Of a DNA stretch of 64,000 bases, positions 14,440 through 58,671 are shown piece by piece (within the stretch, counting starts at the first letter, position 1; each line of letters opens with the position of its first letter). Origin of the DNA: a bacterium (GTDB lineage Bacteria > Patescibacteriota > Microgenomatia > Woykebacterales > RBG-16-39-9b). The position numbers were made by a program, and so were the translations under genes. Below the pieces are notes generated by a model. The model worked only from the letters and a program-made list of their open reading frames with translations. It did not search any database and was not told the DNA's origin. Location of the stretch: assembly GCA_030704665.1 (NCBI GenBank), contig JAUYID010000009.1:64163-128162 (forward strand). The letters are read 5' to 3'.

Positions 14440-14499
14440 TTCGAGGCTCGCACTACACGGGAAGGACTTTCTCGTGTTTTCTGCAGTGCGAGCCTCGAG
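14440..14499. terminator. long GC-rich hairpin (14-bp stem, ~30-nt loop with an inner hairpin) between convergent genes
   Basis: TCGAGGCTCGCACT...AGTGCGAGCCTCGA perfect inverted repeat. Inner ACACG/CGTGT hairpin. On the minus strand it is followed by a T-rich run, consistent with a terminator for 14537..15172. Confidence 0.5.
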
Positions 14500-14536
14500 G
14501 TTCAAGACCTACGTGTCCTTGGTTGCGAAGGCTGCG

Positions 14537-15172
14537 TTACTTCGCCACGCGGCGAGCGACGACACCACCAGCAATCAGAACTAGGCTACTGAGTACCAGG
14601 GCGATAAGCGTCCACAGCGGGAAGCCGGCACCGTCCTGACCCAGGTAGCCACCATTACCGGCGAAAGCAGTGCTCGAGTTGGAGAACGCCGCCGCCAGTA
14701 CGATGCCGACTGCTATGGTTGCGAGTCCGATGGTTTTCAGCGAGTGTCGAAAGACCGCACCTCCGATCGTTTCGACGTCTGTTTTCGCGCCGACGCAGCG
14801 CTGGTAGATTGAGGCTATCACGATGACCGCGATCAGAAATAGACCGATCTGGACCGGAGTCGGCAGGTTAGCAACGTTGTTGCCTATTCCTAACCAGCTG
14901 CCCGTCTCAGTAGCGGTGATCGTTGCTACCTCGCCAAAGTTCACCAATGCCGGTGCGACGATCGTTCTCTCTACGTCCGCCGACATTTCCGCCACGATCG
15001 AAGTCGCGGGAGAGACCAGTACCAGGTCCGGTCCGCGAATCGTGGCCTCGTCGCTCGAGAAGCGGCTCGCCAGGCCCCACGCGCCGACCGCGAGGATGAG
15101 GGCGAGAGCTCCGAGAGCGATGAAGCGCAACATCCCGTGACTGGGCAAAGCCCGTCCCGTTGTGTTGAGCAT
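14537..15172 (-). CDS. high-GC hypothetical membrane protein (compositionally foreign)
   Basis: About 60% GC with GC3-rich codons inside a ~40% GC genome. Several TM helices. Start placed at MLNTTGRAL; the longest ORF runs to 15352. Multiple overlapping alternate-frame ORFs, as is typical of high-GC DNA. Confidence 0.5.
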   Translation of the reverse strand: MLNTTGRALPSHGMLRFIALGALALILAVGAWGLASRFSSDEATIRGPDLVLVSPATSIVAEMSADVERTIVAPALVNFGEVATITATETGSWLGIGNNVANLPTPVQIGLFLIAVIVIASIYQRCVGAKTDVETIGGAVFRHSLKTIGLATIAVGIVLAAAFSNSSTAFAGNGGYLGQDGAGFPLWTLIALVLSSLVLIAGGVVARRVAK

Positions 15173-15494
15173 ACACACCCCTCTCTTCTTGCAACTCCCA
15201 ATCCTTGGGATCCCAAATGAAGAAAGACCCCCTGGGTCTCGTCTTGTTTTTTCGGTGCTTTTGGTCGAGTACCTTAGTCGCCCTCGGCCGAGTTGACGAC
15301 GCGATGAGTAGGAAGTTAGCCGCTCAAGGGCCAGTCGACCGCAAGCTTTCACCTCCTTTGTTCCTCCTCAACAATAGTCCCAACGATAATCCTTTTATAC
15401 CCTCGTTTGCTTGTTTTGTCAATTAAGTTTGAGGTTGTTATATAGATCGCTGCGCGCTCTGAATTACTGCGTGATATAATGCCCCCGACTTCTT

Positions 15495-15584
15495 GGAGAG
15501 GTCGCATAGTGGACTAGTGCACACGCTTGGAAAGCGTGCGTGCCCGCAAGGGTACCGAGGGTTCGAATCCCTCCCTCTCCGCCA
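15495..15584 (+). tRNA. tRNA-Ser(GGA)
   Basis: Acceptor GGAGAGG/CCTCTCC, anticodon loop TT-GGA-AA, long variable arm, T-loop GGTTCGAATCC, CCA encoded. Followed by the hairpin AGGGAT..ATCCCT and a T-rich tract. Confidence 0.85.
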
Positions 15585-15634
15585 ATTCCAATAAGAGGGA
15601 TCGCCAAAAGCGCCATCCCTCCCCTTCCGCCAGT

Positions 15635-16264
15635 TTATTTTATTGGAGTTAAGAAGCCTTCGTAATTTTGTAGGATAAACTTTACATCTTCTGTAAATTT
15701 GTTTGGGTTGTTTGCTAGTTCTTCTTTTAATTCTTCTAAGCTAAAAACTTCGATACCTGAACTTTCACCGTCGGAGAATTTGATCGAACCGTCATAGTAA
15801 CCAATATAGAATTTGGTCATAAAAGGTTGAACGAAAGTTTGGTTGTTTTCAATTCGTGTGGATTGATAGTTACTTTTGTAATCAACTTCGCGAAACAAAC
15901 CAACCACCTTTAAGTCAGTTACTCTTACCGCATGATCAAATTCGGGGGGGGTTAAAACAGCAGCCGGAAAGCCGAGTTCCTCAGCACATTCTTTAATGAC
16001 AGCTATTTCCCAAGTTTGCCTGGCAGCAACATGACCGCCCACTGTTTTGTCATAGAGTCCGGGGTTTTGTGCTTTGATTTTGCTGCGTTTTTGTAAATAA
16101 ATTCTTCCGTCGGAGTTCATCAACACCAGGCGGATCGACTTTACTTGCTTGGAGATAGAGCCTTTGTTTTTATACTCTTCTTTAATTTCTTGATAAAAAG
16201 CTTCTCGATCCATTGATTCAAGAAGATTACCTTGACGGTCAAAAATTTCTAAAGTTTCGTTCAT
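15635..16264 (-). CDS. NUDIX hydrolase
   Basis: Nudix box GGHVAARQTWEIAVIKECAEELGF. Confidence 0.75.
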   Translation of the reverse strand: MNETLEIFDRQGNLLESMDREAFYQEIKEEYKNKGSISKQVKSIRLVLMNSDGRIYLQKRSKIKAQNPGLYDKTVGGHVAARQTWEIAVIKECAEELGFPAAVLTPPEFDHAVRVTDLKVVGLFREVDYKSNYQSTRIENNQTFVQPFMTKFYIGYYDGSIKFSDGESSGIEVFSLEELKEELANNPNKFTEDVKFILQNYEGFLTPIK

Positions 16265-16380
16265 AAAAAGATTTTATCATGTAGAGAGCTTGCGCTGTTA
16301 TTAGCAATCCTCTAGTATTAGCCTGAAAATGGAAAACCAAGTAGAAGAAGTAAACTCTTGCAGGGACTATTTCCAATTTT

Positions 16381-57103: not shown

Positions 57104-57160
57104 ATACAAACCGTTCCCTAAAGGAGCGGTTTGTGCGTTTCAGAGTTGTGGGTTGGAAAT

Positions 57161-57235
57161 TGGTGGCTGCGGCTGGATTTGAACCAGCGACCAACGGCTT
57201 ATGAGTCCGCTGCTCTACCACTGAGCTACGCAGCC
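57161..57235 (-). tRNA. tRNA-Met(CAT) (elongator Met or lysidine-modified Ile2)
   Basis: The reverse complement folds with acceptor GGCTGCG/CGCAGCC, D-arm GCTC-AGTGGTA-GAGC, anticodon loop CT-CAT-AA (A31:G39 mismatch), T-arm GCTGG-TTCAAAT-CCAGC, and CCA. Confidence 0.7.
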
Positions 57236-57289
57236 AAATTGATTTTCTGCGGTTTGCATTATATAGTTTAAACTTAATTCAGACAAGTT

Positions 57290-57616
57290 ATGAGTGAAAT
57301 TTCTTTTGAAGAATTTCAAAAACTAGATTTAAAAGTTGGCAAAGTCATTTCCGCCGAACCAATTGAAGGTTCAAGTAAGCTGCTTAAGCTCAAAGTAGAT
57401 TTTGGCCTTGAAAACAGACAAATCCTTTCGGGGATTGCGGAGTTTTACAAACCAGAAGAACTGATCAACAAAAATTTTGTTTTCATCACCAATCTTGAGT
57501 CTCGCAAGATGATGGGTCTGCAAAGCCAGGGGATGATTCTTTGCGCTGATGTCGCTGGAAGAGCAGTTTGTTTATCCCCGGTGGATAATGTCCCTGCTGG
57601 GACTCCGATTCACTAG
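57290..57616 (+). CDS. tRNA-binding domain protein (CsaA/Trbp111-like, Myf/EMAP OB-fold)
   Basis: LDLKVGKVISAEPIEGSSKLLKLKVDFG...GMILCAD matches the C-terminal tRNA-binding domain of MetRS/PheT. Confidence 0.7.
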   Translation: MSEISFEEFQKLDLKVGKVISAEPIEGSSKLLKLKVDFGLENRQILSGIAEFYKPEELINKNFVFITNLESRKMMGLQSQGMILCADVAGRAVCLSPVDNVPAGTPIH

Positions 57617-57987
57617 CAATTTGGGTTTGCAGACTGGTTTAAAGAAAAGTTATCCCCGTTTTTGAGAACTGTATTTTCATTTCCAGTCTTGATAATTACT
57701 GAGTTAGGACTACAAAAAGCGTACTGAAAAGTAGTTAAATCCAGCCCAGCTGAGTCAATTTCTTTTAAGGTTTGGGGGTAGACGCCGTTTTCGGAAAAGT
57801 AAAGATTAAGTTTGGTAGCCAAAATTTTTAAATTAGCTTTGTTTTTGATAGAAATAGCAGTCGCAACTGTTTCTTTCGCCCCACCTGCTTTGCTAGTTTG
57901 ACCCAGTTGGTTAGTAGCTAAGAACGCAATTAAAACCACCCCAACAAGCAGACTGAATATTCCTAAGACAGCAAGAGCCCTCATCAC
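57613..57987 (-). CDS. hypothetical membrane-anchored protein
   Basis: N-terminal TM helix MMRALAVLGIFSLLVGVVLIAFLA. No pilin GFTLIE motif. Confidence 0.4.
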   Translation of the reverse strand: MMRALAVLGIFSLLVGVVLIAFLATNQLGQTSKAGGAKETVATAISIKNKANLKILATKLNLYFSENGVYPQTLKEIDSAGLDLTTFQYAFCSPNSVIIKTGNENTVLKNGDNFSLNQSANPNC

Positions 57988-58318
57988 AATTATTATAGCG
58001 CTGATTTGACAAAAATTCTTAGCTTTGCTAGAGTCTTTCTCACAATGATGACAAACTTAAACCATTATTGGCCAGACTCTTCCAACTAAGTTGGCGGTTT
58101 TGTTGTGCCTTGGTTTAAGTTTCTTCTAAAATAATTTTCCAAAACAAAGACATTACAAAATTCGCTAACAGGCGAATTTTTTGATGGCCAAAAGGTTATC
58201 AACAGTTTGAAAGGTAGAGAGAATGTGTGACTGCATTGGTCCACGCTTCGATCCGTAGGTTTTCAGGGAGACGTCCCTGTTTTCCGAAGCAGATCTTGAA
58301 AGGAAAGGAGGTGATAGC

Positions 58319-58408
58319 ATGGAAAAGCGACCGTACAGCCACGGCCGCGCCTCGTGGGGTCCGCACAGCTACGGCAGTGCACCCTGGGCCCTGCATTGCA
58401 ACCGGTAA
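58319..58408 (+). CDS. candidate 29-aa small ORF inside a high-GC structured intergenic block
   Basis: ATG preceded by AAAGGAGGTG 6 nt upstream, encoding MEKRPYSHGRASWGPHSYGSAPWALHCNR. Could equally be part of a structured RNA. Several overlapping alternate-frame ORFs in the track cover the same block. Confidence 0.25.
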   Translation: MEKRPYSHGRASWGPHSYGSAPWALHCNR

Positions 58409-58671
58409 GATGAGATGAGGCCAAAAACGCACGGGCGACTTGCATTCCCGCGAAGGTCAGCTTGTCGCCCGTACGGGTCTCATTCTATCACAGCCGTTGC
58501 AAAGCGAAGAGAGGAGGCTAAACACAAAAAGTTTAACCTCCTCTCAAAGACAAAAAGAGTTTTAGTTGCTATACTTTGTGTAATTCTAGAAATTATACCG
58601 ACCTAAAGGTAGTTTTGAAAAACTAAAAGGTTATTATGTGCGGTCGATATAATGTTCGTTAAACTCACATT

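Follow-up and report, generated by a model that had tools for sequence, protein, structure and literature searches.

The window analysed here is a stretch of 64,000 nt within a 938,369-bp contig (locus tags Q8P13_) of a genome of about 0.94 Mb. Its TrpRS (81% identity) and DnaG have their best named relatives in Candidatus Woykebacteria (Microgenomates, within the Candidate Phyla Radiation [CPR], or Patescibacteria). Scattered through the window are short blocks with a guanine-plus-cytosine (GC) content near 60%, which a preliminary description of the sequence took for single-gene islands acquired repeatedly from a high-GC donor. According to our analysis, the blocks are genuine without being one kind of thing. 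Two of them, the unit at 14440-15352 (14k unit) and the cassette at 49837-50706 (49k cassette), appear to be old residents of the Woykebacteria lineage, inherited at fixed positions with their promoters, because their orthologues hold the same sites, promoters, and GC contrast despite saturated synonymous divergence. We put the probability of this reading at about 60%. The persistence of the GC contrast, rather than its mere existence, is the interesting part, and recent horizontal gene transfer (HGT) is only partly supported.

Composition and assembly of the GC-rich blocks

Core functions encoded in the window include SmpB, transfer-messenger RNA, DnaG, sigma-70, the Suf system, TrpRS, FtsH, and PolA, and there are ten tRNAs. 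The window has a GC content of 43.6% (mean of 200-bp windows, 0.436; standard deviation, 0.058), and five blocks reach a 200-bp GC of at least 0.60 (Table 1). Among them are the two that had been singled out besides the promoter-linked cassettes: 14440-15352, with 59% GC against 41% and 47% in the adjoining 200 bp, and 58215-58520 (58k block), with 57% GC, a core of 65.6%, and flanks of 35% and 34%. tRNA genes account for lesser GC bumps at 11.5-11.7k, 12.7-13.1k, and 15.4-15.6k.

The open reading frames (ORFs) of the four coding islands have a GC content at third codon positions (GC3) of 0.70, 0.64, 0.73, and 0.63, while the other 48 ORFs of at least 100 aa in the window range from 0.26 to 0.51. 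Island codon choice is of the type found in a moderately GC-rich organism (CTG, CCG, ACG, ATC, AAG, GAG). The composition-normalised dinucleotide distance delta* of the pooled coding islands is 164, compared with 47 +/- 15 in native controls, CpG stands at 1.12 versus 0.83, and in their dinucleotide signature the coding islands are closer to one another than to the host. Both GC3 and delta* therefore give the island genes the atypical composition expected of an acquired island. The GC profile, GC3, and the flank contrast bear out the sharp-edged high-GC outliers of the preliminary description. Its other structural statements also hold: the blocks sit intergenically between intact low-GC genes, and every block carries a stack of overlapping alternate-frame ORFs.

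Chimeric assembly had been judged unlikely at the outset, and we agree. Logan contigs of run SRR13727534 match window positions 14209-15529 and 57200-64000 at 100% identity; therefore, a second, k-mer-based assembly crosses both edges of both flagged blocks, four junctions of four. These contigs end inside tRNA genes, including those adjoining the 14k block, and such breaks are expected of a k-mer assembler working on a metagenome. The orthologue of the 49k gene described below was assembled identically from three runs, GC-rich orthologues occupy matching positions in other samples and pipelines, and the junction of the GC-rich ORFs with native-type promoters and Shine-Dalgarno sequences is in register. 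That foreign reads were stitched into a low-GC contig during assembly or binning is thus a negligible explanation, even though the source is a metagenome-assembled genome (MAG) and the Logan contigs stop at tRNA genes near the 14k block. Contigs from multiple samples were 99.96-100% identical, and no contrast between weak-to-strong and strong-to-weak polymorphism could be obtained from them.

Orthologues of the 14k and 49k units

By its sequence, the 14k block is a predicted self-contained transcription unit on the minus strand, made up of promoter, leader, 211-aa ORF, and terminator. The minus-strand membrane protein that had been described there is present, as is the left one of its flanking hairpins (Table 1). 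The ORF (GC, 0.61; GC3, 0.70) shows coding periodicity, and its product has an N-terminal signal or transmembrane (TM) segment, internal TM segments, and a C-terminus consisting of AFAGNGGYLGQDGAGFPLWTL, a TM helix, and RRVAK. The long hairpin, located between a NUDIX gene (13975-14427, plus strand) and the island ORF, probably terminates transcription in both directions. Neither the leader nor the unit as a whole matched Rfam.

A positional counterpart comes from a relative whose DnaG is 63% identical (locus L132, European Nucleotide Archive), for which an independent Joint Genome Institute assembly (L133) is also available. Its gene order, NUDIX (plus), 228-aa gene (minus), and tRNA-Ser(GGA) (plus), is that of the window. 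The 228-aa gene has the GC content of the island, and its neighbours have a GC3 of 0.35-0.47. It has in common with the 14k gene the promoter, the leader box, and the last 43 aa of the product (70% identity), the remainder having diverged. Namely, the leader box AACTCGGCCGAGGGCGAC (plus strand, 15277-15294) is kept in L132 as AACTCGGCCGAGGG[CT]GAC, and the left hairpin aligns between the two loci. The promoter stands beside tRNA-Ser(GGA) in L132 and also in the more distant L134, where it reads AACTTGACTAAGCAAGCTAGCGGTGGTATAAGA; the tRNA gene itself is intact and conserved.

The 49k cassette has a syntenic orthologue, P0248, in L136, which together with L125 represents the genome of one relative (TrpRS, 80%). 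The order SufS, NifU, Pyr_redox_2, 49k gene, and response regulator is the same in both genomes. The orthologue is preceded by the same CCTATAG-TTGACTTTT promoter and leader hairpin, and its neighbours have a GC3 of 0.25-0.40. A further relative, L129, has neither the oxidoreductase nor the 49k gene. The window retains the native response-regulator promoter TTGACA..TAGGAT after the cassette (50720-50748).

These orthologues are old by the measure of synonymous sites. Between the window and L132, identity at four-fold degenerate sites of identical residues is 0.25-0.44 for housekeeping genes and 0.33 for the island gene; between the window and L136, it is 0.24-0.39 for host genes and 0.38 for the 49k gene, with chance at about 0.27 in both comparisons. 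Under neutral amelioration, as Lawrence and Ochman are said to have set it out in 1997, a deviation in GC3 decays at the synonymous substitution rate. With synonymous sites saturated, a GC3 excess should therefore have vanished. Yet the 14k and 49k units, their orthologues included, keep a GC content of about 60% and a GC3 of 0.70-0.74 in genomes of 40-45% GC. Their high GC would then be maintained or continually renewed and not a leftover of recent transfer.

Table 1. Features of the window and positional orthologues in relatives.
Feature	Position	Strand	Details
GC block	14410-15318		maximum 200-bp GC 0.665
GC block	32209-32623		maximum 200-bp GC 0.605
GC block	46314-46867		maximum 200-bp GC 0.62
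GC block	49872-50723		maximum 200-bp GC 0.675
GC block	58185-58558		maximum 200-bp GC 0.61
Long GC-rich hairpin	14447-14507	none	CGAGGCTCGCACT...AGTGCGAGCCTCG, followed by a minus-strand T-rich run
211-aa membrane/surface protein	14537-15172	-	NCBI hypothetical protein Q8P13_00600
Leader of about 215 nt	15173-15387	-	51% GC; terminator-like hairpin 15225-15239
Sigma-70-type promoter	15394-15423	-	TTGACA-18 nt-TATAAA; adjoins tRNA-Ser(GGA)
tRNA-Ser(GGA)	15495-15584	+	neighbour of the island gene, conserved in three genomes
14k positional orthologue	L132 3865-4551	-	GC 0.62, GC3 0.74
49k cassette	49837-50706	+	promoter box 49837-49871, leader hairpin 49882-49903, 235-aa ORF 49927-50634, terminator hairpin
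49k syntenic orthologue P0248	L136 6001-6768		47% identical; GC 0.62, GC3 0.72
46k cassette	46218-46774	+	promoter box 46218-46252, leader, 131-aa protein 46379-46774
32k cassette	32117-32678	+	promoter box 32117-32151, 120-nt structured leader, 134-aa soluble protein 32274-32678
Sortase with Thr/Pro-rich linker	13107-13889	-	Pfam Sortase domain, E = 3.4e-10
Small-RNA-like unit, low GC	58006-58190	+	promoter 58006-58034, 10-bp stem, intrinsic terminator 58160-58186
Non-coding GC-rich hairpin chain	58215-58520	none	core 58327-58477
29-aa micro-ORF (MEKRPYSHGRASWGPHSYGSAPWALHCNR)	58319-58408	+	strong Shine-Dalgarno AAGGAGGTGA, 58304-58313
Perfect 15-bp hairpin	58509-58545	none	closes the 58k block; native trpS promoter-like site next, 58547-58575

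Variable cassettes and slots

The remaining blocks behave differently from the 14k and 49k units. We propose that the 46k cassette, the 32k cassette, and the slot upstream of trpS form the variable part of the same system, in which similar promoter-led small ORFs are gained, lost, or swapped between relatives, in spacers that lie between a terminator and the next native promoter.

The 46k cassette encodes a protein with an N-terminal TM or signal segment (GC3, 0.73) and two homologues, P0250 and P0258. It is absent from L129 and L136, in which the gap between the upstream gene and sufS measures 136 bp and 44 bp, respectively; in the window, the native sufS promoter is kept downstream of the cassette. 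A GC-rich hairpin that follows the 46k ORF (46790-46835) is homologous to the terminator upstream of sufS in L129 (1140-1190) and is therefore native and outside the cassette, placing the true right edge of the island at about 46780.

The 32k protein belongs to a family with P0245 (58%) and P0246 (47%). Its promoter and leader are 84% identical to those of a metagenomic contig, L039, where another ORF comes next. The leader (32152-32273; reverse strand of L039, 268-393) holds a conserved nested hairpin, CTTGTCGCTAAATCTGCTTTCAA...TTGAATGTAGACAGAGCGGTAAG, that is kept before this unrelated ORF. Upstream of the 32k cassette is a hairpin, CGCAGGATCCTAAC..AGTGGATCC, common to L032 and L062. The 32k region and the leader hairpin had no match in Rfam. 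The 3' fragment of a tRNA was suspected ahead of the 32k promoter and could not be confirmed.

The window contains three occurrences of the 35-bp promoter consensus, where none is expected by chance. Four contigs carrying this promoter box have four unrelated small ORFs behind it, each of them GC-elevated (0.48-0.57 versus 0.36-0.43). A CCTATAGT box that precedes the -35 elements of the cassettes is also found before the promoter of the syntenic tyrosine recombinase (window 56325-56370, minus strand; L129, about 7240, minus strand), which may point to a shared regulator or to a lineage-specific upstream promoter element. Exact look-ups of the 46k protein, the 32k protein, and the oxidoreductase next to the 49k gene returned no record, and a search of genome contigs with this Pyr_redox_2 neighbour returned only an unrelated Bacilli contig.

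The slot upstream of trpS differs in all three genomes compared: L125 has a GC-rich 421-aa ORF (GC3, 0.57), L129 a 79-aa ORF, and the window the 58k block. Relatives also carry further GC-rich genes with a GC3 of 0.57-0.75, located at L132 15526-18398, L134 2619-3668, and L125 8611-9876 and 20116-20724. These encode a short-chain dehydrogenase, a MaoC dehydratase, an acyl-CoA dehydrogenase, a fatty-acid desaturase, the enzyme-like 421-aa ORF, and a 202-aa membrane protein.

Recent transfer, replacement, or maintenance

Three explanations of the high GC can be set against this record. The first, put forward in the preliminary description, is that each block is an independent and fairly recent acquisition from a high-GC donor that has not yet ameliorated. 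In its favor are the GC3 of 0.63-0.73 with typical high-GC codons, the abrupt edges, the lack of the 46k cassette in both close relatives, a word-indexed search that found no homologue, and the GC-rich beta-oxidation and desaturase genes of the relatives, which are atypical for CPR. Nevertheless, of the blocks discussed here, only the 46k cassette and the trpS-slot cargo are missing from relatives; the 14k and 49k genes occupy the corresponding sites there, behind the same promoters, with the same GC contrast and with saturated synonymous divergence. The cassettes are flanked by native promoters and terminators, and we found no adjacent recombinase or integrase, no attC-like site, and no flanking direct repeats or target duplications; the tRNA-Ser beside the 14k unit is intact, and no tRNA remnant was confirmed at 32k.

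A donor was sought as well. Island proteins had 53 matches among 1.84 billion representative proteins, in families of 3-25 metagenomic members each; these matches come without taxon names, and within that limit none could be assigned to a high-GC phylum and no donor lineage was detected. One match lies on the DNA locus of a Woykebacteria relative. Queries of phage, plasmid, and viral sequences with the 14k and 58k blocks, the promoter, the domain of the 49k protein, and the sorting signal described below returned nothing. Given these results, recent import of every block seems quite improbable. Repeated acquisition from a high-GC donor is not supported for the 14k and 49k units, which have syntenic orthologues and no donor, for the 58k block, which is not a gene, or for the sortase gene, whose excess is one of amino-acid composition. 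What stands of the proposal is gain and loss at the 46k and trpS sites: since two relatives lack the 46k cassette and the trpS cargo differs, acquisition is possible for some blocks.

The second explanation treats the units as fixed expression sites, in which GC-rich ORFs behind a conserved promoter and leader are repeatedly replaced from an external GC-rich pool. This pool would be a GC-richer relative, a host, or an unsampled mobile element; recombination would take place in the conserved ends, and GC would be re-imported each time. Several observations are in line with such replacement: unrelated ORFs follow a common promoter or leader (32k versus L039; the tRNA-Ser promoter in L134 versus the window), each of the four contigs with the promoter box has a different, unrelated GC-elevated ORF, the tree of the 14k family seems to disagree with DnaG identities, the islands have a foreign-like dinucleotide signature in common, and the L125 trpS slot holds a different GC-rich gene. 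On the other hand, the protein, phage, plasmid, and viral searches above revealed no GC-rich pool, the cassettes are linked to no recombinase, attC-like site, or repeat, and island orthologues have diverged at synonymous sites as much as host genes have. We regard wholesale replacement of this kind as unlikely.

We therefore return to long residence with maintained or renewed GC, against which several points must be weighed. The codon use and dinucleotide signature of the islands resemble those of a moderately GC-rich genome, a classic sign of foreign DNA. The basis consists of two orthologue pairs only, and synonymous saturation itself prevents dating. In L134 (DnaG, 53%), the promoter beside tRNA-Ser(GGA) leads into an unrelated sequence of 70% GC with only a 43-aa ORF. 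In its centre, the 14k protein is nearer to P0249, P0259, and P0290 than to the L132 protein encoded at the corresponding position, a hint that alleles may have been exchanged instead of descending strictly vertically. Lastly, the GC-rich lipid-metabolism genes of the relatives are atypical for CPR and look like ordinary HGT.

In the long-residence model, the 14k and 49k units are each a predicted autonomous transcription unit with a consensus sigma-70 promoter, a hairpin leader, a strong Shine-Dalgarno site, a single ORF, and a terminator hairpin rich in GC, and each would encode a fast-evolving envelope protein with a C-terminal sortase-type signal. Candidate keepers of the high GC are selection on mRNA or codons, a local GC-biased process, and continuing allele replacement from a GC-rich pool. 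Translational selection as the sole cause of the high GC3 was judged unlikely because G-ending codons, codon positions 1 and 2, leaders, and terminators are GC-enriched too.

More broadly, and at less than even odds, Woykebacteria, and perhaps other CPR, could hold a compositionally insulated compartment made up of single-gene cassettes behind their own promoters. Many of these cassettes would encode surface proteins anchored by a sortase, and their GC of about 60% would be actively kept some 20 points above that of the genome over evolutionary time. It is equally tentative that this would be achieved either by transcript selection or a local GC-biased process or by recombinase-less capture and replacement behind fixed promoter and leader modules.

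Surface proteins and the sortase

Pfam and NCBIfam contain no family for any island protein, and no curated sorting-domain model matches them. A word-indexed search of 5.8 billion proteins with the 14k protein returned only itself, as an NCBI MAG protein. By exhaustive HMMER comparison with the 1.84 billion representatives, it has three full-length relatives (P0249, P0252, and P0259; 33-40% identity), and about 15 further proteins of 69-728 aa match it only over the last 42 aa. About 20 proteins, 69-728 aa long, end in the tail consensus GPDTGNGGYLGQDxSAGFPMWTLVALALGSxxLVAGGLVTRRxGK. Shared as it is among otherwise unrelated proteins, this tail may be read as a sortase sorting signal, with an LPXTG-like motif, spacer, TM helix, and basic tail. 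The form PDTG-NGGYLGQD...FP[ML]W would then be a new variant of the signal, defined by these genes. In the 14k protein itself, FAG replaces the PDTG of its relatives, while the helix and RR tail are present.

The 49k protein has the full set of motif, hydrophobic helix, and basic tail. It consists of a signal peptide, a conserved beta-sandwich domain of about 100 aa, a Thr/Pro linker, LPAAG, a TM helix, and an Arg-rich basic tail, ending in KLPAAGTG...VIGFAGIFLLMAGSLRRNNRRRR. About 25 homologues share the domain and have ends of the LP[DEAS][TA]G type (LPETG, FPDTG, and LPSTG among them) followed by a TM helix and basic tail. An AlphaFold2 model of the N-terminal domain is a seven-stranded beta-sandwich with a predicted local distance difference test score of 92-98, and a fold search with it gave only generic immunoglobulin-like or neocarzinostatin-like beta-sandwich matches at E > 0.005.

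A sortase is encoded in the genome itself, 650 bp from the 14k unit, and would anchor the 14k and 49k proteins to the wall. Only the generic Pfam Sortase model passes its cut-off; in NCBIfam, the gene product scores 46.9 bits for class F (cut-off, 166) and 13.6 for class E (cut-off, 160). The preliminary description had listed this gene as GC-elevated. At 52.1% GC it is, although with a GC3 of 0.51 it is a marginal outlier. The linker has a GC content of 0.78 at second codon positions; its GC3 of 0.46 is host-like, and that of the catalytic part is 0.55. The excess is therefore mostly an effect of amino-acid composition, residing in the second codon positions of the Thr/Pro linker, and the sortase gene is not an island of the same kind. 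Its orthologue in L134 is also mildly elevated (GC3, 0.59). Beside the latter lies an uncalled GC-rich ORF of 180 aa (L134 5444-5986, minus strand) that ends in LPEAT...TM...RNRER, a probable further sortase substrate missed by gene callers.

The non-coding block upstream of trpS

The block at 58215-58520, reported from the start as free of long ORFs, is not a gene. Its GC content by codon phase is 0.57/0.57/0.56, that is, without overall periodicity. The sole coding-like stretch is the 29-aa micro-ORF (phase GC, 0.63/0.77/0.60, with the peak at the third position of the ORF), whose Shine-Dalgarno sequence can pair with 58481-58498 or 58536-58545. Folding of the block gave z-scores of -4.8 and -6.7 on the two strands and -5.1 and -5.5 in a separate control run, compared with -2.9 to +1.4 for coding islands and native genes. 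Its structure thus exceeds what composition accounts for, as expected of a non-coding RNA (ncRNA). The GC-rich block beside tRNA-Ser in L134 is unstructured (z = 0); therefore, the richness in hairpins is not general to such blocks.

The 58k block lies between a small-RNA-like unit and the native trpS promoter. The former unit has a 10-bp stem, CTTAAACCA/TGGTTTAAG, that encloses a second hairpin; it is 83% identical to L125 8427-8549 (within the L125 unit 8380-8575), and pairing in its terminator stem is kept via compensatory changes between the window and L125. It belongs to no Rfam family, and its sub-threshold matches to Trp_leader and csRNA are driven by the terminator.

We take the 58k block to be a structured regulatory RNA or element or, alternatively, what remains of a lost cassette. 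No second copy or homologue of the block was present in any fetched locus, so that comparison supports neither option. That it is a decayed copy of the 421-aa gene that occupies the same slot in L125 was ruled out by comparison. A more specific proposal is that the block is a functional structured RNA, acting as a riboregulator of the micro-ORF or as an independent minus-strand ncRNA, and neither a decayed cassette nor foreign DNA. The fold z-scores of about -5 to -6.7 on both strands, the missing overall periodicity, the two downstream segments that can sequester the Shine-Dalgarno sequence, promoter-like sites on both strands, and a dinucleotide signature within the native range all agree with it, and long GC-rich intergenic regions of AT-rich genomes are enriched for structured ncRNAs (PMC6429828, PMC8632094). 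Conversely, there was no match in Rfam 15 at E values up to 10, the block is missing from this slot in the nearest relatives, L125 and L129, the fetched loci offer no homologue for covariation evidence, and the equal stability of both strands suggests DNA palindromes rather than a strand-specific RNA. A functional RNA is thus possible, with the odds somewhat against it.

tRNA genes of the window

Several tRNA loci are unusual in themselves. A tRNA-Ile(TAT), with an uncommon anticodon, lies at 54136-54211 amid tandem partial tRNA-like repeats (54037-54392) that comprise three copies each of the 5' half and the T-arm; L125 and L129 each have one tRNA-Ile(TAT) only. The tRNA-Arg gene has the anticodon GCG, not the usual bacterial ACG (read with inosine), in the window (12747-12823), L132 (2962-3037), and L134 (4755-4830). 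Finally, two inverted tRNA-Met(CAT) genes lie 57 bp apart at a Logan contig end (window 57029-57235); the pair is direct in L125 and inverted in L129.

Implications

Atypical composition is routinely taken as a mark of recent HGT, and both HGT detectors and MAG decontamination tools depend on that equation. In the window and its relatives, two GC-rich genes stay 20-30 GC3 points above their neighbours at the same sites although their synonymous sites have been randomised. If this were true genome-wide, composition-based HGT calls in CPR would be misleading for this gene class, and such genes might be wrongly removed from MAGs as contamination. The island genes are candidates for the surface proteins by which these ultra-small, probably epibiotic bacteria would contact their partners. 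An insulated compartment or cargo replacement, if confirmed, would represent a new intragenomic organisation in reduced symbiont genomes.

Comparison with known systems

HGT and genomic islands in Patescibacteria have been surveyed (PMC12455944). Like acquired islands, the blocks have a sharp composition contrast, atypical codons and dinucleotides, intergenic positions, some differences in presence and absence, and in one case a tRNA neighbour. In contrast, they are GC-richer than the host, where islands are usually AT-richer, consist of single genes, lack an integrase, repeats, and a donor, and in two cases are syntenic and unameliorated. The window also contains what is by its gene content a classical integrated defence island (21021-31298), with 38% GC versus 44.7% for the rest, directly after tRNA-Asn. 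This low-GC island encodes a large serine recombinase (21081-22769, minus strand), an N6/N4 DNA methylase, a type III restriction Res-like helicase, and an AAA_15/AbiEii-like ATPase. In L132, different genes follow the tRNA-Asn.

Phage morons, like the cassettes, are single ORFs with their own promoter and terminator between undisturbed residents and with deviant GC; the cassettes differ in having no prophage context and no phage matches, being flanked by syntenic housekeeping genes. Integron cassettes share with the units their small single-ORF form, variable content, and imperfect hairpin ends. Yet the units are dispersed and have their own promoters, and membership fails because there is no array, attC consensus, or intI. 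The only tyrosine recombinase in the window is an Xer-like gene (55432-56304) that is syntenic in the relatives.

The 58k block resembles the structured ncRNAs of GC-rich intergenic regions (PMC6429828, PMC8632094, PMC11109978) in being a long, GC-rich, structured intergenic region of a lower-GC genome; it differs from them in having no family, homologues, or covariation and in a slot that varies between close relatives. Island proteins and LPXTG sortase substrates have in common the C-terminal motif, hydrophobic helix, and basic tail, the Thr/Pro stalk, and an adjacent sortase gene. The island family departs from LPXTG in its PDTG-NGGYLGQD...FP[ML]W signal with a long conserved spacer, and the window proteins have Ala for Thr (FAG, LPAAG).

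Finally, in Rhizobium leguminosarum, which has core and accessory components, the accessory pool keeps its own composition over long times (PMC1557990). The cassettes are likewise non-core genes with a lasting distinct composition. The accessory DNA of R. leguminosarum, however, is found on plasmids and in large islands and has a lower GC content, whereas the cassettes are isolated, set in a conserved core, and GC-richer than their surroundings.

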